Below, piece by piece: positions 9,457-64,000 of a stretch of DNA of 64,000 nucleotides. Below the pieces are notes generated by a model. The model saw only the letters and a program-made list of their open reading frames with translations. It was not told the DNA's origin and ran no database searches. The stretch's first letter is position 1; every line of letters begins with the position of its first letter. Both the position numbers and the translations under genes were made by a program. Source of the DNA: Dehalococcoidia bacterium (GTDB taxonomy: Bacteria; Chloroflexota; Dehalococcoidia; GIF9; AB-539-J10). Where the stretch lies: contig JAUWOR010000006.1 in NCBI GenBank assembly GCA_030612025.1, forward strand, positions 26,043 to 90,042, in the 5' to 3' direction.

Positions 9457-10491
9457 CTACTTAAAGCCAATCCCTTCTATCTCTATGAAATCGTCCTTAA
9501 TTCTTGTTTTGGCGCCCAGAAATTCCTCAATCAACCACAGGTTTGTCTCTACGTGTTCGGTAATTCTAGGAATCGAGTACCTGCTAGTTCCATCAGCCAA
9601 GCCAGCATAGATTATGAGCTGGTCTGCTATATACCTATCAACCGCGGCACCAGTTTTAACATCCTCTACAAAGCTTTGGGCTACATACCTCCCGATAGAC
9701 TCGGAGCTTCTTCCCGGCCTTCCTGCTCTATCCAAGCCAATTCTGCTACCTAAACTCGTCTTAGCATATATCGCCAGGGCAGCACCTTCCTGAAGCGAAC
9801 TCTCATCGTAAATTTCCTCGATTTCAGCCTTATAGCCATAAGAGCTTAATACCTTCTGGCATTCCTCTGCCATCCTGTGGCTCACTTCCCTTCCCTTCAA
9901 ATGAGAGGAGAGGGCGATTCCTTTGATATTGAGAATCCTGCCTTGCTCAGTAAGATTTAAAGGTTTTAATTTCTTTACCGGCTCAACTTCAATTTCTATA
10001 ATCCCGCCTCCTCGTGGCACGTAGCCAGGGCGAACTATCTCAAGCTCAGCCTGAATTCCCAGCTGTTCCAAAATTGGAAGCAAGACAAATTTCATATGAT
10101 AGGCAGAGGGGGCAAAATCCTGGAATATCCCGCCTTCGAGCCTGAATTTCGAGGGCTTTCCCGCAAAGCAGGCTAAAGGCAGAAGAGTTTGTGCCATCAT
10201 TGTGGTTGACCCTGCTGTCCCTATATCCCAGTGATACTCCCCTCCTTTAAACCTTCCCTTTGGAGCATAGGTAATCTCCTTAGAGCCCACCACGGCATTA
10301 CTCGCTGTGCCTTGGCACATCTCCTGACAAGCCTGGATAACCTTAAGGTGCTGCCTCCTTAGCCCTGGCCTATCCCTCTTCGCCCTGATATTTTGTATCT
10401 TTACCTCTTTCCCGAGCAGGCTAGCCAGAGCTACAGAATAGCGCACTATGGTTCCACTTCCAGACTTGGCGCCGCCATCTATAACCTTCAT
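9457..10491 (-). CDS. rtcA: RNA 3'-terminal phosphate cyclase
   Basis: 344 aa. The N-terminus (IDGGAKSGSGTIVRYSVALASLLGK) and overall length match RtcA. Confidence 0.85.
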   Translation of the reverse strand: MKVIDGGAKSGSGTIVRYSVALASLLGKEVKIQNIRAKRDRPGLRRQHLKVIQACQEMCQGTASNAVVGSKEITYAPKGRFKGGEYHWDIGTAGSTTMMAQTLLPLACFAGKPSKFRLEGGIFQDFAPSAYHMKFVLLPILEQLGIQAELEIVRPGYVPRGGGIIEIEVEPVKKLKPLNLTEQGRILNIKGIALSSHLKGREVSHRMAEECQKVLSSYGYKAEIEEIYDESSLQEGAALAIYAKTSLGSRIGLDRAGRPGRSSESIGRYVAQSFVEDVKTGAAVDRYIADQLIIYAGLADGTSRYSIPRITEHVETNLWLIEEFLGAKTRIKDDFIEIEGIGFK

Positions 10492-10544
10492 GTTGAGGCA
10501 ATACTATTTATATGCTGAGTAGGCAAAGTCAGTCAGTAGTCTCA

Positions 10545-10808
10545 TCATTTACGGTATGCTTCTCCACGATGACGGACATGATAAATGGTCACGACTTTCG
10601 TTTTGACGTCCACTTGGTAGATTACCCTGTAATCCCCAACTCGAATTCGATAATCTCGTTCTGAGCCTCGAAGTTTACGGCATTGTGATGGAAATAGATT
10701 TTCTACAAGGGACTCAACTGCTTGAATAATCCGAGGGATTTGCTGTGGATCAATATTCCGTAAGTCTCGCTCTGCTGACCCTTTCCATCGAATCTCATAA
10801 GAGGCCAT
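10545..10808 (-). CDS. RelE/ParE family type II toxin
   Basis: 87 aa. The RelE/ParE C-terminal signature is present (YRIRVGDYRVIYQVD...VVTIYHVRHRGEAY). It overlaps the upstream antitoxin gene. Confidence 0.8.
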   Translation of the reverse strand: MASYEIRWKGSAERDLRNIDPQQIPRIIQAVESLVENLFPSQCRKLRGSERDYRIRVGDYRVIYQVDVKTKVVTIYHVRHRGEAYRK

Positions 10809-10986
10809 CTTTTTCTAACTTCTTTTTGAGTTCTTCAAAAGTTATAGTAGGCTCATCTCTACGTTCAGCGATAATTGCAAGGTCATGAATATCTTCTAGA
10901 AGCTCTTCATATTCCTCAACCGGAATAATTACTGCTGTTTTTTGTCCTTTTTCATCTACAACATATTGCTCTTGAAATTTTGCCAT
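10795..10986 (-). CDS. Phd/YefM-type antitoxin
   Basis: 63 aa and acidic. Its 3' end overlaps the toxin gene start by 14 nt. A palindrome, AGTATATACT, lies about 40 nt upstream. Confidence 0.7.
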   Translation of the reverse strand: MAKFQEQYVVDEKGQKTAVIIPVEEYEELLEDIHDLAIIAERRDEPTITFEELKKKLEKDGLL

Positions 10987-11039
10987 GCTTGTCCTCCTGT
11001 TAGATTTTCAACAATTGAGTTCGTATAACTTAGTATATA

Positions 11040-11258: not shown

Positions 11259-11447
11259 TTAGCACTGCTGATATTCAAATGCTAGCTGTAGGTTTATTTC
11301 CTTCGCGAGCAGGCTCGCCAGAACTACAGAATAGCGGACTATAGTTCCGCTTCCAGACTTTGCACTGCCATCTATGGTTATCATGTGCTGTTGTTTCTCC
11401 TCTTTGAAAAAGGCCTGTAACATTTTATATCTTTTGTTATACTCCAA
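11259..11447 (-). pseudogene. divergent 5' fragment of rtcA (partial duplicate)
   Basis: The ORF encodes ...MITIDGSAKSGSGTIVRYSVVLASLLAKEI, which matches the RtcA N-terminus. The stretch 11288-11390 is about 85-90% identical in nucleotide sequence to the 5' end of rtcA at 10400-10491. Confidence 0.7.
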
Positions 11448-11475
11448 AATACAATTTGCGCCTCTAAATGAGGGT

Positions 11476-11639
11476 GTTTAAAAATGTAGTTGCCCAATTT
11501 ATTGGGCGACTGTGCCTGATAAATCAGGCAACTACAAAAATTTAGGGTGAAACACCTCTGAGGTGGCTGAAATTGAACGGGAAATCAAAATTAAACAGCC
11601 TTTAAATAATTAGGAGGAAAATTTAAAAAGAGCCAAAAG
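11476..11639 (+). repeat. structured leader repeat, copy 1 (66-nt triple-hairpin core, then ~75-nt leader and RBS), upstream of the first PAC2 gene
   Basis: A near-identical inverted copy lies at 62756-62906. The core sequence is gtagttgcc-caatttattggg-cgactgtgcctgataaatcaggcaactac. It has two inner hairpins and one outer stem. Confidence 0.6.
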
Positions 11640-12554
11640 ATGGGAATAAGACTTTTTAAAGAGCCTGAGCTGGAAAAACCTGACCTGATTTGCGGCTGGC
11701 CAGGGATTGGGAATATTGGGCTAATTGCTGTTGATACCTTGAAGGGGGAGCTGGTAGCAGAAGAGTTTGGAGAAATAGAACCCTGGGACTTTTTCTACCC
11801 CAAGAAGGTCTCCGTCAGGGACGGTTTGCTCGAAAACTTAGAGTTCCCCACCAACAAATTTTATTATCAGCGGCTGAGAAGGAAAGATTTAATATTTTTC
11901 CTTGGAGAAGAACAGCCGACTGAGGGAGAGAGAGTGTACGCCACGGGAGAAAAGGCTTACCACATGGCCAATCTAGTTTTAGATGTAGCTGAAAAGTTTG
12001 GCTGCCAGAGAGTTTATACTTCAGGTGCCTGTGTTTCACCCATTCACCATACTGTGAAACCAAGAGTTATTTCAGTGGTAAGTTCTGAGAAGTTAGTAGA
12101 GGAGGTAATAAGGTACCAAAATACAATTTTAATAAGCGAAATGGGAGGAAGAGGTGAAGGGGTTATTACCGGATTAAACGGTCTTTTGCTGGCAGTGGCT
12201 AAAAAGAGGGGGTTAGAAAGTATTTGTTTAATGGGGGAGATACCAGATTGGCTTTCTGGTTCTCCCTTCCCCTATCCCAAGGCTTCAAAATCAGTGCTCG
12301 AGGTTTTTGCTGACATTCTCGGAATCAGAATTGATTTTATAGTTCTCGATAAGATGGTTGCCCAGATGGAAGAGGTTATTGAAAAGATCTATGAAGAATT
12401 CCCTTCAGAAATAAGGGAGCGATATGATGAAAGAAAGCTTATTGCCCAAGCTAAGCCAGGAGGGATAACTGAAGAGGATGCCAAATGGATTAAAGAGCAC
12501 ATTGATGAATTTTTTAAGAAAAGGGGGGAACAGGGTGGACAAAGCTCTGTTTGA
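11640..12554 (+). CDS. PAC2 (proteasome assembly chaperone-like) family protein
   Basis: 304 aa. The N-terminal motif LICGWPGIGNIGLIAVDTL is typical of the PAC2/DUF75 family. Confidence 0.65.
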   Translation: MGIRLFKEPELEKPDLICGWPGIGNIGLIAVDTLKGELVAEEFGEIEPWDFFYPKKVSVRDGLLENLEFPTNKFYYQRLRRKDLIFFLGEEQPTEGERVYATGEKAYHMANLVLDVAEKFGCQRVYTSGACVSPIHHTVKPRVISVVSSEKLVEEVIRYQNTILISEMGGRGEGVITGLNGLLLAVAKKRGLESICLMGEIPDWLSGSPFPYPKASKSVLEVFADILGIRIDFIVLDKMVAQMEEVIEKIYEEFPSEIRERYDERKLIAQAKPGGITEEDAKWIKEHIDEFFKKRGEQGGQSSV

Positions 12555-13369: not shown

Positions 13370-13470
13370 AGGAAAAATCGCTCTCTTTCATCTACAACAT
13401 ACCACCTTGAAATTTTCTCATGCTTATTCCCCTGTTAGATTTTCACCAACCGATTTCGCATAACATTTTC
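13370..13470 (-). repeat. remnant of an antitoxin gene 5' end with its upstream region (a toxin-antitoxin cassette scar)
   Basis: The stretch 13379-13466 is about 85% identical to 10958-11030, which is the Phd antitoxin start and its upstream sequence. No intact toxin-antitoxin genes are adjacent. Confidence 0.4.
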
Positions 13471-14676: not shown

Positions 14677-14972
14677 TGAGGAATTCCTCGCGTTAGGCTA
14701 GCGCTCTAGCATCTGGCCAGCATTGCATATAACTCGTGCATAACCGCACTGCGTTTATTTTTCATTTAGCTCCATCCTATCCAATGGATTTTGGGGCCCC
14801 CGCACCATCTTATTGGAAACATAGGTCATCTTCCCTGCTTCTTTTTTAAGATGATCATTTTGCACAATTAGTATATACGAAATTCTCTTTTTGTTCAGTA
14901 GCTTATTGCACAGGTATTGGATGCCCTCACTATTTCCATTAAGCACTACAAAAAGTTACCTGCTAATTCCAG

Positions 14973-18188: not shown

Positions 18189-18262
18189 TTTCTGACACTC
18201 GAACTCCGACCTTATTCATATTATAATACTTAAAGCTGAAAAAAGCATAAGCAGCTTGAGAC

Positions 18263-18469
18263 ATGTCTAGCTCAGGACAGAGAACCGGGATTGCCAATTT
18301 GCCACTTCACTATGGCAAAGTGCCTCCGTGGCTGTTTGGGCGGATGTGCCAGCTTGCTCGGGAGATAGCCATTGTCATTGTTGATGAATTTGGAGCTGAG
18401 GAGATGCTCCGCCGCTTCTTGAACTGTTTTCATCAGCCACCTCCTTTGTTGTCCTCAATAACATTATAG
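18263..18469 (+). pseudogene. divergent 5' fragment of the DUF763 gene
   Basis: MSSSGQRTGIANLPLHYGKVPPWLFGRMCQLAREIAIVIVDEFGAEEMLRR matches the N-terminus of the intact gene at 19426. Nucleotide identity is about 90% over 160 nt, and the sequences diverge after that. Confidence 0.7.
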
Positions 18470-19220: not shown

Positions 19221-19425
19221 AATTGATCACCATTTCCATCTGATGCCGTCATTTCATATAACTTTAGTATATACGAAATTCGCTTTTTATTCAGTAGGTT
19301 ATCAGCATATACATATACTTGGGTAGCTGCTCCCTTTCAAAGCCAGCCGCACCTCTGGCAACTTTTCGTCATGCGGCAAATATCGGTCAAGGTAACGCTG
19401 TTGTATAATATCTGTAGAAAAGGAT

Positions 19426-20514
19426 ATGTCCACCTCAACACAAAGAACCGGGATTGCTAATTTGCCTTTGCACTATGGCAAGGTGCCTCCGTGGCTTTTT
19501 GGGCGGATGTCTCAGCTTGCTCGGGAGATTGCCATTGTCATTATTGATGAATTTGGAGCTGAGGAGATGCTCCGCCGCCTTTCTGACCCTTTCTGGTTTC
19601 AAGCTTTTGGCTGTGTCCTGGGCTACGACTGGCATTCCAGCGGCGTTACTACCACTGTTTGCGGGGCTCTGAAAGAAGGGATGCGAGGCTTAGAAAAAGA
19701 ACTTGGCCTGTTCGTTGCCGGCGGCAAGGGCAGGACTTCACGAAAAACCCCAGCGGAGATAGAAAGCTTTGGGCATCTGCTAAAAGTAAATCCATCGCCT
19801 CTAATCTATGCCAGTCGGATGTCAGCCAAGGTAGATAACTCAGCCCTTCAAGACGGCTATCAGCTCTATCACCATACTTTCTTCTTTACCAGAGACGGCT
19901 CCTGGGCAGTAATTCAGCAGGGCATGAATGAGATTAACCGCTATGCGCGGCGTTATCACTGGCTAGGAGAAAAAGTCGTTGATTTTGTTTGTGAGCCTGA
20001 GGCAGCTATTTGCTCCCAAGCTAGAGGCGAAGCACTAAACTTGGTAGCATCAGAGAGCACACAAGCGCGAAACGTCATCACCGATATTGCTGCTGAGGAA
20101 AAGCCGGAGAATATCGTAACCCAATTGAAGAAGCTAAAAACCTTGACTCTGCCCCGGCGATCTTACATCAGCCTCGAAGACATTCATCCCGACCGACTGA
20201 GCAAGCTCTTCACCATCGCTTATGAGCATCAACCAGAAAACTTTGAGTCACTGCTGGGGCTTGAAGGTATAGGACCAAAGACGCTTCGCGCTTTGAGTCT
20301 TATCTCAGAATTGGTTTACGATACACCGGTTAGCCTGCATGACCCGGCAAGCTACAGTTTTGCCCATGGTGGCAAGGATGGTCATCCCTATCCTGTGGAT
20401 AGGAAGACTTATGATGCTAGCATCGAATTTCTGGCTCAGGCGGTAGATAAAGCCAAGATTGGCGATAAAGAGAAGCTTGATGCCTTCAGACGCCTAAAAG
20501 TTTGGACTGTATAA
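19426..20514 (+). CDS. DUF763-family protein, conserved hypothetical and archaeal-like
   Basis: 362 aa. Partial, divergent copies of its 5' end (18263-18469) and 3' end (22407-22510) flank two inserted cassettes. Confidence 0.7.
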   Translation: MSTSTQRTGIANLPLHYGKVPPWLFGRMSQLAREIAIVIIDEFGAEEMLRRLSDPFWFQAFGCVLGYDWHSSGVTTTVCGALKEGMRGLEKELGLFVAGGKGRTSRKTPAEIESFGHLLKVNPSPLIYASRMSAKVDNSALQDGYQLYHHTFFFTRDGSWAVIQQGMNEINRYARRYHWLGEKVVDFVCEPEAAICSQARGEALNLVASESTQARNVITDIAAEEKPENIVTQLKKLKTLTLPRRSYISLEDIHPDRLSKLFTIAYEHQPENFESLLGLEGIGPKTLRALSLISELVYDTPVSLHDPASYSFAHGGKDGHPYPVDRKTYDASIEFLAQAVDKAKIGDKEKLDAFRRLKVWTV

Positions 20515-22406: not shown

Positions 22407-22510
22407 TTATACGATGCTAGCATTGAATTTCTGGCTCTGGCAGTGGACAAAGCCAAAATTGGCGATAAAGAGAAGCTTGATGCCTTCAGAAGATTAAAGG
22501 CTTGGCGGTA
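22407..22510 (+). pseudogene. divergent 3' fragment of the DUF763 gene
   Basis: About 88% nucleotide identity to 20405-20514. It encodes ...DASIEFLALAVDKAKIGDKEKLDAFRRLKAWR*. Confidence 0.65.
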
Positions 22511-22534
22511 AAGGAGGTTTTAGGGTGAGTTTTT

Positions 22535-22588
22535 CACCCTCACCTTAATCCTCTCCCGTCAAGGGAGAGGAAATTTGGCTCGCAATGA
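22535..22588 (+). repeat. REP-like hairpin element, copy A (caccctcaccttaatcctctccc-N-caagggagaggaaat)
   Basis: Further copies lie at 56274-56316 and 58304-58357, all in the same orientation. A degenerate relative is at 24464-24495. Confidence 0.7.
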
Positions 22589-33172: not shown

Positions 33173-33262
33173 GATAAAGGATAAGAAAATCAAAAATCAA
33201 ACATCAAAAGTCAAAATCACAGATTTATTTTTGCATTTTTATCTTTGACTTTCCGCCTCGTC
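33173..33262 (-). promoter_or_regulatory. hairpin plus tandem TGATTTT repeat element between rpoB and rpoC
   Basis: The minus-strand sequence reads aaagtcaaag...ctttgacttt (a 9-bp stem) and then tgatgtttgatttttgatttt. A related element lies at 56941-57051. Confidence 0.45.
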
Positions 33263-44608: not shown

Positions 44609-45904
44609 TTGGGAGATATGGCTTACAAAAAGGAAAAAATGCAGCTAAATGGAGAGCAAAGGAAGATACTGGATGGAAAGGAAGGAAAAATCCTACAGGA
44701 GGCGATGGAGTCTCTCATTAAGTATGGCACTGCTATGGGTGCTAGGGAATTCATCAGAATCTCCAGTGCTCATACCTTGTTCACGTTAAGGAGCAAGGTA
44801 GCTAGGTGCTTCCTTCCGCGTGGTGTTCTGTTAACCAAAGAGGATATTGATAAGTTTAGCAAAGAGATAATTGGTACCCAAGTAAGAGTCAAGACCACAG
44901 TTAACCCTGGAGCAATAGACCGTGAGAAGTGGCAGCAGATGGGTGCTGAGGAGGCCACTTATAATTCAGTGATGCAAACGGTAGAGATTGGTAAGAGGTG
45001 TGGGTTTATGATGACTTATACCTGCATCCCTTACCTTACAGATAATATTCCTTTAATAGGTCAACACGTTGCTTGGTCTGAGTCTAGTGCTTATCTTTAC
45101 ATTAACAGCTTCTTAGGAGCTCGGTCAAACCGTGATTCCTGCGAGATATCCTTATATTCATCCTTGCTAGGCATTGCTCCGAACTTTGGCCTGCACCTTG
45201 ATGAGAATAGGAGGGGTACTGACTTAATTAATGTGCAATGTGAGTTAAAAGGTCCCATCGATTGGGGTGCACTAGGTTACTTTACAGGAGATAGAGTGGG
45301 TATAGGTATTCCGGTATTCAAAAATTTGAGGAGACCAACTACAGAGGAAGCAGTACAATTAAGTGCATCCATGAGTTCCTCTGGTGCTGTACCTATGTTA
45401 CATATTGTGGGTGTGACACCTGAGGCGCCAACTATTGAGACAGCTTTCAGAGGGAACACGCCAAGGCAAACATATATCTTCGATGAATCTGCCAAAGGAG
45501 AGGTTTACCAGCTTCTCAATTACAAACCTGAAGGGAAGGTGGATATCGTTTTCCTTGGCTGTCCACATGCAACTCTCTACGAGATAAAAGAGATAGCTCG
45601 AATGCTTGAAGGTAAGCATGTGGCCAATGATATTAGACTTTGGGTCATGACATCGTCTTCCATTAGAGCTTCGGCAGAACAGCTGGGGTATGCTGAGATA
45701 ATTGAGGATAGTGGGGGGGAACTATTTGCTGATGGATGCTTTCTCTGCTACTACGTAAATGCTCCTAATAAAAAGCCCAAGATGGATCGTATAGCAACCA
45801 ATTCAGCCAAGCAGGCTTTCGGTGCAAGAAGGTCATTTAACAGCAATGTATTTTTTGGAGACACGGAGCGTTGTATCCAGATTGCTATTGATGGAGGTGC
45901 TTAA
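44609..45904 (+). CDS. AcnX-type (aconitase X, DUF521) dehydratase large subunit, pair 1
   Basis: 431 aa and paralogous to 50436-51695. Shared blocks include YGTAMGA, W[SA]ES..YLYINS.LGA.SNR and ATNSAK.AF.ARRSF.SN.FFG. A DUF126-type small subunit follows immediately. Confidence 0.65.
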   Translation: MGDMAYKKEKMQLNGEQRKILDGKEGKILQEAMESLIKYGTAMGAREFIRISSAHTLFTLRSKVARCFLPRGVLLTKEDIDKFSKEIIGTQVRVKTTVNPGAIDREKWQQMGAEEATYNSVMQTVEIGKRCGFMMTYTCIPYLTDNIPLIGQHVAWSESSAYLYINSFLGARSNRDSCEISLYSSLLGIAPNFGLHLDENRRGTDLINVQCELKGPIDWGALGYFTGDRVGIGIPVFKNLRRPTTEEAVQLSASMSSSGAVPMLHIVGVTPEAPTIETAFRGNTPRQTYIFDESAKGEVYQLLNYKPEGKVDIVFLGCPHATLYEIKEIARMLEGKHVANDIRLWVMTSSSIRASAEQLGYAEIIEDSGGELFADGCFLCYYVNAPNKKPKMDRIATNSAKQAFGARRSFNSNVFFGDTERCIQIAIDGGA

Positions 45905-46320
45905 TGGCAGCAGCATCAAAAATATTCAGGGCGAAAAAAATCGTTCCAGGTAAGGTTTCAGGGCCAGCTCTGGTTACTAGGGGGTGTCTCTCCTTTCAGG
46001 GCTTTATTGATCCAAAGCGAGGGGTATTTTCTGCACCAGTGACTGAGTTGCAAGGAGCTTCATTTGTTGGAGCAGTATTAATTTTCACTTCGGGGAAAGG
46101 TCCTTCCGTTGGGCCGAGTGTACTTGACCTCGCCTGTCGTTTTGGAAATGCCCCAGCAGCAATCATTAACTTGGAGATAGACCCCATGATAGTTGCAGGC
46201 TGTGCTTTGCAAAACATCCCGCTGGTGCAGGTAAAGGATTCAGGCATTTTCGACCAAGTAAAGAACGGAGATATAGTAACGGTGGATGCAGACAGAGGTG
46301 AGGTGACAATTTCTAAATAG
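45904..46320 (+). CDS. AcnX swivel-domain small subunit (DUF126), pair 1
   Basis: 138 aa with AKKIVPGKVSGPALVT...SFQGFIDPKRGVF. It is start/stop coupled to the large subunit. Confidence 0.65.
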   Translation: MAAASKIFRAKKIVPGKVSGPALVTRGCLSFQGFIDPKRGVFSAPVTELQGASFVGAVLIFTSGKGPSVGPSVLDLACRFGNAPAAIINLEIDPMIVAGCALQNIPLVQVKDSGIFDQVKNGDIVTVDADRGEVTISK

Positions 46321-50439: not shown

Positions 50440-51695
50440 GGTTAACTGAAGTACAGCAAAATATAATTAATGGTGATAAAGGGAGACTTCTTAGAGAAGC
50501 ACTTATTAACCTGGTTAAATATGGCACTGCCATGGGTGCTGAGGAATTTATCCCCATCACCAGCGCCCATATTGCGTTTTCAGCAATGGACGTTGTGGCT
50601 TTGTGCTTCTCTCCACGTGGTAGGGAGCTAACAAAAGCTGAGATTGATAGGATTACCGAAGAGATGAGAAATATTAAAGTTAATGTTAGAACCACCGTTA
50701 ATTCAGGAATAATTGATCGTAGAAGGTGGCAACAAATGGGTGCTGACGAGTCAATTTATAATTCTGTAATGCAGGCAGTTGAAGTTGCAAGAGAGTGTGG
50801 GATAATGCCTACCTTCAGTATCACACCCCATCTAACTGATAATATCCCACTTATGGGAGAGCATTGTGCATGGGCTGAGTCTGGAACGCATTTATATATT
50901 AACAGTATTTTGGGAGCACAATCTAACAGAGAGTCGTATGAGTCAGCTTTTTACTCATGCCTACTAGGTATTACTCCAAACTTTGGCATGCACCTTGATG
51001 AGAATAGAAAAGGTACAGACTTGGTTGATATCCAGTGCGAGCTAGAATATGGTAGTGATTGGGGTGCATTAGGATATTTCACTGGTGATAGTATTGGTAT
51101 AGGTATACCTGTATTTAAAAATCTAAAAAGGCCAGTTGTTGAGCAGGTAAATCAACTTTGTTTTGCAACAAACTCTCCTGGTGCTATTCCAATGCTGCTT
51201 ATTCCCGGTGTGTCTCCTGAGGCTCCAACTCTTGAGGCGGCCTTTAGAGGAAACAAACCCAGGAATACATACTTTTTTGATGATAAAGCCAAACAAAGAA
51301 TTTACAATTCTCTCAACTATAATTCTAAAGGAGAAGTGGACTTAATTTCTTTTAGATGTCCTACTTTATATGAGTTAAGTAAAATAGCTAAAATGATTGA
51401 GGGAAAGAAAGTTCACAAAAATACTAGATTATGTGTAATGACTTCTGATTCTATTAGACACTCTGCGGAGCAAATAGGCTATGCTCAGATAATTGAGGAC
51501 AGCGGTGCAGAGCTATTTGCTGATGGTACACTACTTATTTTCTACATAAATGCACCTGCAAAGAAACCTAAGATGAATAGGATAGCAACAAATTCAGCCA
51601 AGCTTGCTTTTGCCGCAAGACGGTCATTTCACAGCAACATATTTTTTGGAAGCACAGAGCGCTGCATCGAAATAGCCATTAAGGGAGGTGTGTAA
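50436..51695 (+). CDS. AcnX-type (DUF521) dehydratase large subunit, pair 2
   Basis: 419 aa and paralogous to 44609-45904. Confidence 0.65.
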   Translation: MRLTEVQQNIINGDKGRLLREALINLVKYGTAMGAEEFIPITSAHIAFSAMDVVALCFSPRGRELTKAEIDRITEEMRNIKVNVRTTVNSGIIDRRRWQQMGADESIYNSVMQAVEVARECGIMPTFSITPHLTDNIPLMGEHCAWAESGTHLYINSILGAQSNRESYESAFYSCLLGITPNFGMHLDENRKGTDLVDIQCELEYGSDWGALGYFTGDSIGIGIPVFKNLKRPVVEQVNQLCFATNSPGAIPMLLIPGVSPEAPTLEAAFRGNKPRNTYFFDDKAKQRIYNSLNYNSKGEVDLISFRCPTLYELSKIAKMIEGKKVHKNTRLCVMTSDSIRHSAEQIGYAQIIEDSGAELFADGTLLIFYINAPAKKPKMNRIATNSAKLAFAARRSFHSNIFFGSTERCIEIAIKGGV

Positions 51696-51696
51696 T

Positions 51697-61576: not shown

Positions 61577-62755
61577 TCATGTTCCACTTTCTAGTTTTCC
61601 TTCATAGGCTTTCTCAAAGAGTCTAACCATGCCTTCCTCTGTGACTTTACGCGGATTGCGTGCTACATGTGCGGTGCTCTTAAAAACGTTCTTCGCTATT
61701 GAGGGAATCATGTCCCTTGTTACGCCGACTTCTTTAATTGATGTTGGCATATTTAAATCTATTAAAAGTTTCTTAAAAGCCAGGGCGGATCTGAATGCTG
61801 CCTCTCGTAAGGATAATTCTGAGGTAGGCTCTCCTAAGAGCTCCGCAATGGTGGCATGCTTTCGCAGATTCGAAATAGCATTATATTCCAGCACATAGGG
61901 CATTGTAATAGCTATTGAATAGCCATGTGGGAAGTGAAATTTCGTCGCTGGATATACATAAGCATAACCACATGCATGTCCAATCACAGTTCCCGCGTTT
62001 CCAAAAGCCAGGCCAGCCATTAAAGATGCCAGGGACATGCCTGATCGGGCCTCCATGTTATCTCCGTAAGCATAAGCTGCTCTGAGATTTTCAGCAACAA
62101 GACTCATGGCCTCCACTGCTAGAGCATCTGTTATCGGATTAGCTTTTAAGGATACATAGGCCTCGATAGCATGACACAATGCATCTATACCTGTATTGGC
62201 CGTCGTGCGGGCAGGCACCGTTCTGGTCAATTCAGGATCAACAAGTGCAATATCTGGGTACATAAGTGAGCTATACAATACATATTTGACTTCGGGGGTA
62301 GCAAAAACCGCTGCGTTGGAAACCTCACTCCCGGTTCCAGATGTAGTTGGGATAAGCACAAGTGGAGCTAATGGTTTTTCAAAAACTTCCTTAACCCACT
62401 CCTTAAGGCTTCCGGGATTGGTGATTGAGACAGCCGCTGCCTTAGCAGTATCCATTACGCTGCCACCACCAAGCCCGATAACGCTATCGTATTTCCCCTC
62501 CCTGGTGAATTGTATTGCTGCTTCACCAACTTCTAAAGCCGGTTCGGGCTCTACTTTATCCCAAACCGCATAATCAAACCCACCCTTTTCCAGCATACCC
62601 GTTACTTTATCAACCCATCCAGCCTTTTTAACCACTGGACCAGTTATAATAGCTATTTTCTTGGCGCCGATATCTTTTAGTTCCCTGCCAAGCTGTTCTA
62701 CAGCGCCCACGCCGAAAAGAATCTTCTTAGCTGTAACAAATGAATATGTCTTCAT
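61577..62755 (-). CDS. iron-containing alcohol dehydrogenase family protein
   Basis: 392 aa. The Fe-ADH fold is indicated by the GGGSVMDTAK glycine-rich NAD motif and the downstream His residues. Confidence 0.8.
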   Translation of the reverse strand: MKTYSFVTAKKILFGVGAVEQLGRELKDIGAKKIAIITGPVVKKAGWVDKVTGMLEKGGFDYAVWDKVEPEPALEVGEAAIQFTREGKYDSVIGLGGGSVMDTAKAAAVSITNPGSLKEWVKEVFEKPLAPLVLIPTTSGTGSEVSNAAVFATPEVKYVLYSSLMYPDIALVDPELTRTVPARTTANTGIDALCHAIEAYVSLKANPITDALAVEAMSLVAENLRAAYAYGDNMEARSGMSLASLMAGLAFGNAGTVIGHACGYAYVYPATKFHFPHGYSIAITMPYVLEYNAISNLRKHATIAELLGEPTSELSLREAAFRSALAFKKLLIDLNMPTSIKEVGVTRDMIPSIAKNVFKSTAHVARNPRKVTEEGMVRLFEKAYEGKLESGT

Positions 62756-62906
62756 AGTTTCACCTCCTAATTATTTTGAGGCTGTTTAATTTTGGTTTTC
62801 CGTTCAAATTTGGGCATTTTGAAAGCCTTTCACCCCCAGATTTTTGTAGTTGCCTGATTTATCAGGCACAGTGGCCCAATAAATTGGGCAACTACATTTT
62901 TAAACA
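62756..62906 (-). repeat. structured leader repeat, copy 2, inverted orientation, directly upstream of the Fe-ADH gene
   Basis: Its reverse complement matches 11476-11639. The 66-nt core has 1 mismatch. The leader is partly conserved, with an identical RBS context taattaggagg. Confidence 0.6.
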
Positions 62907-63625
62907 GCCTTATTTTGAACTCACAGATTGCTTTCGTGGGAGTACTTCAAATGGGCACTCACCGCAGTGTTTCCAAATTGATATAGCTTTTTAGCTCCAA
63001 TACCTCCTTTATTGGCCCTGCCAATACTGCCATATTCGCACCGCTTACTAGCGTATCACCTCTTGCGGTATTTGTTAATATAGTAACCCTCTACACATTA
63101 TTTAACCACCTTGTAGTCTTAAGATAGCTGCCAGCCCTTCTCTGGAACTTGGCTCTATGGTGGGAGAAATTGCCTTTTAAGCCACTGCCAACTGATGAGC
63201 AAATCGGAACCTTAGTTTAGAGCTGGATAGCTGATTTGTGAAAAGTCAACACAAACCTATTAACATTCGCTATTTTGGGTAGTAGGATTGAATTAAGGCA
63301 GTAGCACTAGAGTAATTAACAGCTTGATAGTGCTGTCCGCACAAGGCTAGTCTATTGTTCATAAGGACAATATGCATATGGGGCGGGAGTGCCTGTGATA
63401 ACTGAGGCATTCCCCTTGTTTTTATGCACCAGAAGAAGAGGTGATGCCTATTAAGACAAAAGACGCTCAGGAAAGACTAGTAGGAAAGATGAAAAAACCC
63501 CGCTATTTTAGTGCTGTTGAAGCCGTTTGCTGGGGTTTATTTTCTCCGCGAGTTCAATTATTATTAGAGGGATGAGTATTAAGTTAAGAGTTTATTATCA
63601 TTGCATTTTTGAGCAGAAAGAAAAA

Positions 63626-64000
63626 TGGAGTTAAAGTACGGCAAAGGAAGTGTTAGCTTACCCTTAGAGGGGAAGAATGTAATACAAATATTACATTCAA
63701 AAGAGAAAGAGGTTTTATCAAATCCAGAACATAAGCTAAAAAGGTTACTAAAGAACCCCATAGATAGTCTTTCTTTAAGAGAATTAATCCTTCAGAAAAA
63801 AGCGCAAAATATACTGGTTATTGTAAATGATGTAACCAGGCCTACCCCCTATAAGATAATCTTGCCGCCATTATTAGATGAGTTAAGGGAAGCGGGGGTA
63901 AAGATAGAAAATATCAAATTTATCATTGCTACCGGGATTCATCGAGCTAATTCTGAGGAAGAGATGCGAAGCATATTTGGAGAAGATATAATCTCCACCT
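63626..64000 (+). CDS. LarA-like (nickel-dependent lactate racemase family, DUF2088) protein. Only the N-terminal part is present; the gene runs off the window end.
   Basis: Manual translation from the ATG at 63626 gives MELKYGKGSVSLPLEGKNV...ILVIVNDVTRPTPYKIILPPLLDELREAGV. The D.TRPTP motif is characteristic of the family. Confidence 0.55.

Follow-up and report, generated by a model that had tools for sequence, protein, structure and literature searches.

Two inversely oriented repeats upstream of unrelated genes in a Dehalococcoidia genome are probable copies of a REPIN-carrying miniature transposable element

The 64-kb stretch of a Dehalococcoidia genome analyzed here (contig JAUWOR010000006.1; hereafter the window) contains two copies of a module of about 132 nt, copy A at 11470-11602 on the forward strand and copy B at 62778-62911 on the reverse strand. 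Copy A precedes a PAC2 family gene (11640-12554, +) and copy B precedes the gene of an iron-containing alcohol dehydrogenase (Fe-ADH; 61577-62755, -). We regard both loci, with a probability of roughly 85%, as copies of a MITE (miniature inverted-repeat transposable element) carrying a REPIN, an inverted doublet of repetitive extragenic palindromes (REPs) that folds as a single hairpin (PMC3337134, PMC3116915). A repeat search of the window recovered an inverted pair of arms at 11463-11595 and 62786-62918 (133 nt, 79%) and a second inverted pair at 11536-11631 and 62749-62844, bearing out the two-copy, inverted arrangement before unrelated genes that a first-pass annotation had described. When aligned in the same orientation, the copies are similar over about 165 nt, reaching AGGAGG. 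The 66-nt core said to be repeated with one mismatch matches at 65 of 66 positions, the sole mismatch being a G/C at 11508, and it has the outer arms (GTAGTTGCC/GGCAACTAC) and the two palindromes, GCCCAATTTATTGGGC and TGCCTGATAAATCAGGCA, that had been claimed. The two separate inner hairpins proposed for these palindromes did not hold, the minimum-energy fold being one long hairpin of about -30 kcal/mol in which the first REP (REP1) pairs with the second (REP2).

Copy A begins with a left terminal inverted repeat (TIR) of sequence GAGGGTGTTTAAAAA (11470-11484, +). It has one mismatch to the family consensus GAGGCTGTTTAAAAA, and the right end is its reverse complement. The REPIN follows at 11486-11535 (+), with GTAG heads and imperfect palindromes forming the REP1/REP2 hairpin: REP1 consists of GTAG at 11486-11489 and a palindrome at 11492-11507, and the inverted REP2 of a palindrome at 11513-11530 and ACTAC at 11531-11535. 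The right arm (11536-11590, +) comprises AAAAATTT-AGGGTGAAACACCTCT, a hairpin of a G-run and a CU-tract that forms a variable segment of "class II", and then AAATTGAACGGGAAATCAAAA; it leads into the right TIR, TTAAACAGCCT(T), at 11591-11602 (+). The element is flanked by the pentamer TAAAT as a target-site duplication (TSD), at 11465-11469 on the left and as a direct repeat at 11603-11607 on the right (both +), abutting the element at the (1,1) offset seen in the family. After the right duplication come AATT and an AGGAGG (11612-11617, +) that lies outside the mobile element; it is 4 nt past the duplication, and the PAC2 ATG at 11640 follows 22 nt after it, with no alternative in-frame start between the two.

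Copy B has the same anatomy on the reverse strand, with a left TIR AAGGCTGTTTAAAAA at 62897-62911, a REPIN (GTAG...CTAC) at 62846-62895 that forms the same long hairpin and lies in the core matching copy A at 65/66 positions, a right arm with a "class I" variable segment (GGCTTTCAAAATGCCC) at 62790-62845, and a right TIR TTAAACAGCCT(C) at 62778-62789. Its left TSD is AAAAT at 62912-62916, which recurs as the right TSD at 62773-62777. The AGGAGG of the Fe-ADH gene (62763-62768, -) is again 4 nt past the duplication and lies 7 nt before the ATG at 62755-62753. A ribosome-binding site a few nucleotides before the ATG, as had been described for both genes, is thus found for copy B and not for copy A. 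In both copies an 11-nt inverted repeat (AGGCTGTTTAA ... TTAAACAGCCT) bounds the module, at 11471-11481 and 11591-11601 in copy A and at 62779-62789 and 62900-62910 in copy B. This terminal motif occurs eight times in the window at up to one mismatch, against about two expected by chance, and four of the eight occurrences are the ends of copies A and B.

Related sequences were searched in about 1.6 Mb of loci retrieved from metagenome-assembled genomes (MAGs) and metagenomes (numbered with the prefix L). A profile of the two window copies identified about 25 copies that extend past the REPIN through the right arm, and a profile of the right arm alone identified 19 copies, all of them (19/19) directly after a REP ending in CTAC; the right arm is kept in these 19 matches and in 51 aligned copies. 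For a sample independent of the REPIN, JGI metagenomes were scanned with a 29-mer pattern of the right end (TTGAACNNNNAANCAAAATTAAACAGCCT), which hit at least 120 metagenome stretches and yielded 92 unique loci among the matches listed. Full-length matches numbered 96 in the 1.6 Mb of retrieved sequence. Overall, more than 100 distinct copies were found in Dehalococcoidia MAGs and metagenomes, upstream of unrelated genes, with several copies in single MAGs (PCSL01: L008, L009, L032 and L043; WJOY01: L024 and L069). Most copies are 131-134 nt long, with a sharp mode at 131-133, and contain no consistent open reading frame (ORF), the spurious frames varying from copy to copy. They end in 15-nt TIRs of the form (G)AGGCTGTTTAAAAA ... 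TTAAACAGCCT(C), and the pair GAGGCTGTTTAAAAA/TTAAACAGCCTC is present in both window copies and the 51 aligned copies.

The flanks of these copies carry the signature of insertion. When the duplication was read in a register allowing one extra TIR base per side and a length of 5-8 nt, perfect flanking direct repeats of at least 5 nt were found in 55% of 55 canonical copies, compared to 1.3% of mismatched left/right pairs, and repeats of at least 6 nt in 31% compared to 0.4% (binomial p = 5e-28); a test with a fixed 8-mer gave a weak signal. The duplications in the window, TAAAT for copy A and AAAAT for copy B, fit the family pattern. Furthermore, three pairs of orthologous loci differ by the presence of the element. 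Between L146 and L184, whose flanks are 95% identical, the difference is a precise insertion of 134 nt accompanied by duplication of TAAAG; L115 and L173 (91%) form an occupied/empty pair with a precise insertion and duplication of AAAAAG; and in L203 compared to L174 (92%) GATTAA is duplicated, the GGAGG of an aspS-like gene lies 5 nt downstream, and at the empty site, L174, that gene has the same Shine-Dalgarno sequence (SD) and start without the element. These three pairs are decisive in identifying a transposable element, and a non-autonomous one. As a separate observation, one MITE copy (L211, about 50-183) lies directly after an apparent tRNA 3' end (ggttcgaatcccgtcacccgct) and has the TSD TTTATAG. 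Full-text literature searches returned no relevant paper on the REP and TIR sequences, and a literature search on MITEs in Dehalococcoidia gave nothing specific.

The core of the element reads GTAG-TT-GCCCAATTTATTGGGC ... TGCCTGATAAATCAGGCA-A-CTAC, that is, two imperfect palindromes in inverted orientation with GTAG at the foot of each. In REP/REPIN systems the REP-associated tyrosine transposase (RAYT) binds and cleaves its REP, and is encoded by a single-copy, vertically inherited gene. A conserved 5' GTAG beside a hairpin is the hallmark of REPs recognized by these transposases, and RAYT genes are "always flanked by BIMEs" (bacterial interspersed mosaic elements; PMC3479197). Folding of the REPIN with ViennaRNA gave the single REP1/REP2 hairpin with -29.5 to -30.5 kcal/mol and z-scores of -4.7 to -8. 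An exact scan for the 18-mer TGCCTGATAAATCAGGCA, with one genome per species, hit at least 110 stretches. Among the matches listed, about a dozen have no ACTAC tail and are attributed to chance, while the rest carry the tail and most of these have a GTAGTTGCyCrATTyATyGrGC partner upstream; the partner variants differ in a compensatory way, pair 3/14 going from C-G to T-A and pair 5/12 from A-T to G-C, with GTAG and CTAC kept. The hosts among the matches listed are mostly Dehalococcoidia MAGs, and by MAG label at least 8 phyla are represented; the other labels include Zixibacteria, Omnitrophota, Actinomycetota, Planctomycetota, Elusimicrobiota, Ignavibacteria and Ratteibacteria, where binning errors are possible.

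Genes for small Y1 proteins of 130-132 aa were found in three retrieved loci (L017, 1593-1991; L040, 5087-5482; L030, 588-977), with REPINs of the same family on both sides. The proteins match Pfam Y1_Tnp (PF01797), align over their full length to Escherichia coli TnpA-REP (PDB 4er8), and have as their best NCBIfam model REP_Tyr_transpos, the REP-associated tyrosine transposase, at 69-72 bits, compared to 25-44 bits for IS200. Judged from these sequence features, the REPIN belongs to a REP family that has, in related genomes, a Y1 (RAYT-like) transposase of its own.

In MAGs of other phyla (L036, L079, L103, L033, L002, L073, L080, L078, L090) the same REPIN core was observed in different, related inverted-repeat shells, for example GAGCCTGTTGCATAAA, CAGACTGGGTCACAAT, GGGCTGTTGAAAAAG and GCTCTGTAACATAAATT, and the shell in L073 has a 6-nt flanking direct repeat, CTTTAG. 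The varied shells suggest a wider superfamily of composites of TIRs and REPIN, or repeated capture of the REPIN. The same genomes contain further REP families headed by GTAG/CTAC (GTAGTGCGAGGCTTTAGCCTCGTGC...GGGTCGCACTAC; TCGGGGACAAGCCCCGACCCTAC; GTAGCGGCGGGGTTTATCCCCGCC; in L008, L024, L069, L124, L135, L198, L212 and L215), often stacked side by side and beside a GTCATTGCGAGG...GAAGCAATCTC repeat.

Within the MITE the REPIN proved to be separable cargo. Among 86 evaluable unique copies, chosen by the right end alone, 52 hold a type-1 REPIN with both REPs and 13 a partial one; 8 hold a second GTAG...CTAC REPIN (GTAGTGCGAGGCTTTAGCCTCGTGC...GGGTCGCACTAC) at the same position, and 13 hold other repeats or nothing, including a 76-nt form without REPIN (L191) and a minimal hairpin of about 42 nt (L137, L200). 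A repeat also stands in for the REPIN in L136, L148, L192, L203 and L213 (tttgaatttggaatttagaattt...); it is AT-rich and comparable to heptamer-like repeats (GAAAATCAAAAATCAAACATCAAAAGTCAAAAT) seen at 33185-33252 and 56950-57006 of the window. Copies exchange internal segments as well. One retrieved locus (L123) is 91% identical to window positions 61566-63242 (1.7 kb) and has the element at the same site before its Fe-ADH gene (L123 1678-1812), yet its variable segment of about 30 nt is of class II, as in copy A, whereas copy B in the window has class I. This class switch at an orthologous locus indicates gene conversion between dispersed copies. The Fe-ADH start codon is GTG in L123 and ATG in the window. 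Upstream of copy B, about 1 kb (62995-64000) contains no ORF longer than 60 aa, and the 91% similarity to L123 stops at 63242.

Several observations weigh against the interpretation of the two loci as copies of a REPIN-carrying MITE. The duplications vary in length between 5 and 8 nt. A search for an autonomous element sharing these TIRs came up empty both in the 1.6 Mb of retrieved loci, where TIR pairs separated by 0.5-5 kb enclose ordinary genes and no transposase, and in viral contigs, where a scan with the 15-nt TIR gave 46 chance matches, with the element in none. The window itself contains only two copies, and these are alike outside the element too, weakly over about 25 nt upstream and by 14 identical nucleotides (AAATAATTAGGAGG) downstream, a similarity that simple independent transposition leaves unexplained. 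On the side of the REPIN, the Y1 proteins score below the curated cutoff of 80 bits for REP_Tyr_transpos, and a tblastn search with a RAYT-like protein found no such gene in the 64-kb window. Finally, the co-transcription and the terminator effect in reverse orientation proposed below are predictions from sequence and folds.

The position of the element relative to genes is strongly biased. In a strict test demanding an SD, a start codon and an ORF, a gene start lay beside the right end in 36 cases and beside the left end in 4, and in a test independent of gene calls GGAG or GAGG occurred at +9..+15 of the right end in 33 cases compared to 3 for the left (p = 2e-7). In 30 of 33 copies the start codon follows the right end at 20-29 nt (median 23), while the gap from the left end to the nearest ORF ranges from 0 to 600 nt. 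Between the right duplication and the SD there are 3-5 nt in 18 of 24 copies, most often 4, and both window copies, with TSD, AATT and AGGAGG in succession, show this canonical geometry. The first-pass annotation had held that many copies at random positions would speak for a plain repeat; the copies are indeed many, yet their positions show a strong link to gene starts. The two orientations also differ in what follows the REPIN hairpin, which on the antisense strand is AUUUUUAAAC (AUUUUU, terminator-like) and on the sense strand an A-run.

Two explanations can be offered for this bias, a target-site preference next to GGAGG or selection. In the former, which concerns the cause of the placement alone and not the identity of the element, the transposition machinery would recognize a GGAGG-like motif and insert about 4 nt upstream of it in one orientation, so that the bias would be mechanistic and not selective. 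We consider such homing possible, though doubtful. It would account for the narrow spacing between TSD and SD and for the unconstrained gap on the left side. A GGAG or GAGG starting at +11..+14 is found in 74% of copies with a gene and still in 39% of copies without a callable gene, compared to 0-3% of control windows, although some of the sites without a callable gene may be miscalled. The motif accompanies 14 of 17 copies with perfect TSDs of at least 6 nt, presumably young ones, two of the three recent insertions with known empty sites abut GGAGG, and the TIR tip GAGGCTG resembles GGAGGTG. On the other hand, about 40% of copies have no SD-like motif, and selection against disruption of genes and promoters, together with the terminator-like reverse orientation, could yield much of the pattern. 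The clean recent insertion in L146 compared to L184 is not beside an SD-like motif, so that any targeting would not be absolute. The unusually precise and oriented placement just upstream of SDs makes the choice between targeting and selection directly testable.

A REPIN-carrying MITE would then behave as follows. A non-autonomous element of about 132 nt would insert and duplicate 5-8 bp of target, and its anatomy of TIRs and TSDs suggests mobilization in trans by a transposase that is probably of the DDE type. Its 5' half is the REPIN, with two GTAG-headed REP palindromes forming one hairpin of about 24 bp. Given a position some 4 nt upstream of GGAGG and 20-29 nt from start codons, with the right end nearly always toward the gene, the element is probably co-transcribed as a structured 5' leader in the untranslated region. 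In the sense orientation the hairpin is followed by an A-run and the SD is unpaired in the predicted folds, and expression may thus be tolerated; in the reverse orientation the hairpin is followed by AUUUUU, a terminator-like arrangement, which would be counter-selected, insertions between promoter and gene being lost. A bolder version, which we put forward tentatively, describes a transposon that homes to ribosome-binding sites, inserting in one fixed orientation about 4 nt upstream of a GGAGG motif, and thereby equips many unrelated genes with a uniform 5' leader of strong folding (TIR stem and REPIN hairpin), at the same time serving as a vehicle that spreads the REPIN, and with it a RAYT substrate, within and possibly between phyla. 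If true, it would constitute a "portable leader" occurring in nature, which might influence mRNA stability, insulation or translation, and an example of SD-guided target choice.

The first-pass annotation had also considered a mobile promoter or leader of the MITE type. The MITE part of that proposal is sustained by the TIRs, TSDs, empty and occupied sites and the occurrence of more than 100 copies before genes unrelated to one another; the promoter part is not. An outward-facing promoter in the right arm, kept because it drives the downstream gene, appears unlikely, even though the sequence conforms to the operational definition of a "putative mobile promoter" by its occurrence upstream of coding sequences that are not homologous (PMC3488235) and Correia and other MITEs do carry promoters (PMC10969869). 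The right end keeps a narrow spacing to start codons that would suit a promoter, the orientation bias is strong, and the right arm has a conserved TTGAAC and A/T-rich blocks. However, a consensus scan of both loci found no sigma-70 -35/-10 pair inside copy A or B, and by inspection TTGAAC lies 23 nt from the element end and 13 nt from the nearest -10-like hexamer (TAAACA). Many copies start 0-15 nt past the stop codon of an upstream gene on the same strand, suggesting sites internal to operons, the aspS-like gene at the empty site has its SD and start in the absence of the element, and an independent promoter-like site lies upstream of copy A at 11404-11433. With no sigma-70-like promoter inside and some copies in operons, any promoter activity is putative. 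Other regulatory signals were sought as well: a scan of both loci found no intrinsic terminator inside the element, and by eye a sigma-54 -24/-12 candidate (TGGCTGAAATTGAAC) is wrongly spaced and not conserved in copy B, the spacing in AATCAAAATTAAA does not fit an integration host factor (IHF) consensus, and integron attC R-boxes have no match.

Far less probable still is a cis-regulatory structured RNA, such as a riboswitch, attenuator or thermosensor conserved in the 5' untranslated regions of a regulon. The full leaders do fold well (-50 kcal/mol, z about -4.6), TIR pairing encloses several hairpins in one domain immediately upstream of the SD, and a G-run and a CU-rich, anti-SD-like tract lie about 45 nt upstream of the SD. 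Yet the comparison with Rfam that the first-pass annotation had proposed gave no match anywhere in the window at gathering threshold; for 11400-11700 a search at E<=10 yielded only chance matches far below threshold, the best with 26 bits against a gathering score of 88. RNAalifold on 51 copies gave -11.3 kcal/mol with a covariation term of -1.18 and recovered only the outer stem of the REPIN and a low-information hairpin of the G-run and CU-tract, with G-C/G-U changes only. Covariation of the TIR pairing (P1) was kept out of the evidence, as the right TIR was preset by the search pattern and transposon TIRs covary anyway. The downstream genes are functionally unrelated (PAC2, Fe-ADH, and argG-, aspS- and miaB-like starts), many copies have internal parts swapped or absent, and TIRs, TSDs and empty sites mark inserted DNA. 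The SD is unpaired in the minimum-energy folds of the leaders, and neither locus offered a sense-strand terminator/antiterminator alternative. A riboswitch or attenuator-like leader, as first proposed, is therefore unsupported, there being no Rfam match, no convincing covariation and no sequestration of the SD, and a false riboswitch candidate can be removed from the annotation.

Equally improbable are tandem operators of a dimeric transcription factor co-regulating both genes, for although the 16-18-bp palindromes are perfect with 2-nt centers, share the pattern TGCCyrATwwATyrGGC and have centers 22 bp, about two helical turns, apart, the degenerate pattern does not occur above chance elsewhere in the window, and the palindromes bear REP-typical GTAG/CTAC heads, flank Y1 transposase genes, occur in hundreds of contexts in several phyla and show compensatory stem changes that indicate hairpin formation and not fixed protein contacts.

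The surroundings of the two MITE copies contain further repeats. Next to copy A, the 5' end of rtcA (RNA 3'-phosphate cyclase, 9457-10491, -) recurs at 81% in a truncated fragment at about 11259-11386 (-), the repeat being 10394-10493 and 11287-11386, and a ParE/RelB toxin-antitoxin pair (10545-10808, 10795-10986) sits between the rtcA 5' end and its fragment. The antitoxin start with its upstream region (10971-11029) recurs at 83% downstream of the PAC2 genes (13406-13464). The rtcA fragment, the bracketed toxin-antitoxin pair and the recurring antitoxin start mark this neighborhood as rearranged, and rearrangement may account for the 22-nt gap between AGGAGG and the PAC2 ATG. Elsewhere in the window, a second interspersed repeat family has three copies (22529-22587, 56268-56326 and 58297-58355; 76-93%) and is built on CCTCTCCC-N4-GGGAGAGG palindromes (CACCCTCACCTTAATCCTCTCCC.TCAAGGGAGAGGAAAT), with similar sequences in L093 and L109. 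Short duplicates of 88-92% (18260-18415 and 19423-19578; 20410-20505 and 22410-22505; 14868-14906 and 19264-19302) correspond to the start and end of the gene at 19426-20514 and a 39-nt upstream motif, and are probably gene fragments or duplicated promoter regions. Three collinear repeat blocks (45572-46306 and 51363-52096; 71-78%, offset 5.8 kb) point to a pair of paralogous gene clusters on the forward strand.

The element combines two known kinds of repeat, a REPIN of the GTAG-REP/Y1 type and a MITE with TIRs and TSDs like Correia or ERIC. With the REP/BIME/REPIN-RAYT systems of E. coli, Pseudomonas and Stenotrophomonas it shares the GTAG at the palindrome foot, inverted doublets forming one hairpin, and multiple extragenic copies (PMC3479197, PMC3337134, PMC3116915), as well as a Y1/HUH transposase gene with repeats on both sides, here in related loci only. 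It differs in that the REPIN lies inside a larger element bounded by TIRs and TSDs, so that one sequence serves two transposition systems, and in that the Y1 proteins are small (130-132 aa) and under the NCBIfam RAYT cutoff. The hosts are Dehalococcoidia and other, mostly uncultivated phyla and not the Proteobacteria, where REPINs have mostly been studied. In contrast to described REPINs, which are mostly vertical and lineage-specific, the same REP 18-mer occurs here in MAGs of at least 8 phyla.

Correia elements (CREE/NEMIS) of Neisseria are likewise MITEs with TIRs, TSDs and stable hairpins, mostly immediately upstream of genes; they are 100-155 bp long, co-transcribed, and can change the expression of neighboring genes (PMC10969869). 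They have a TA duplication, demonstrated sigma-70 promoters and IHF sites, with no reported strict orientation or fixed spacing to the SD, whereas the present element has TSDs of 5-8 bp, a REPIN inside, and no promoter found by consensus scan. The small interspersed repeats BOX, RUP and SPRITE of pneumococci are also nested in one another and have terminator-like hairpins (PMC10969869); sequences and hosts are different, and nesting there is sporadic, whereas here the combination of MITE and type-1 REPIN dominates (52/86 copies). The ERIC/IRU elements of enterobacteria and Yersinia are among the repeats cited in the part consulted of the mobile-promoter literature (PMC3488235). The present element has no sequence relation to ERIC, and ERIC orientation effects were measured, whereas here an effect is suggested by the orientation bias. 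ERIC/IRU are imperfect palindromes of about 127 bp in transcribed intergenic regions, with orientation-dependent effects on flanking mRNA. Putative mobile promoters (Matus-Garcia et al. [quoted passage not shown] Set against these systems, the family described here, with defined consensus, termini and TSD, can be masked and tracked in Dehalococcoidia genomes and metagenomes, extends the GTAG-REP/Y1 type beyond the Proteobacteria, and puts a structured leader of about 130 nt before many housekeeping genes.

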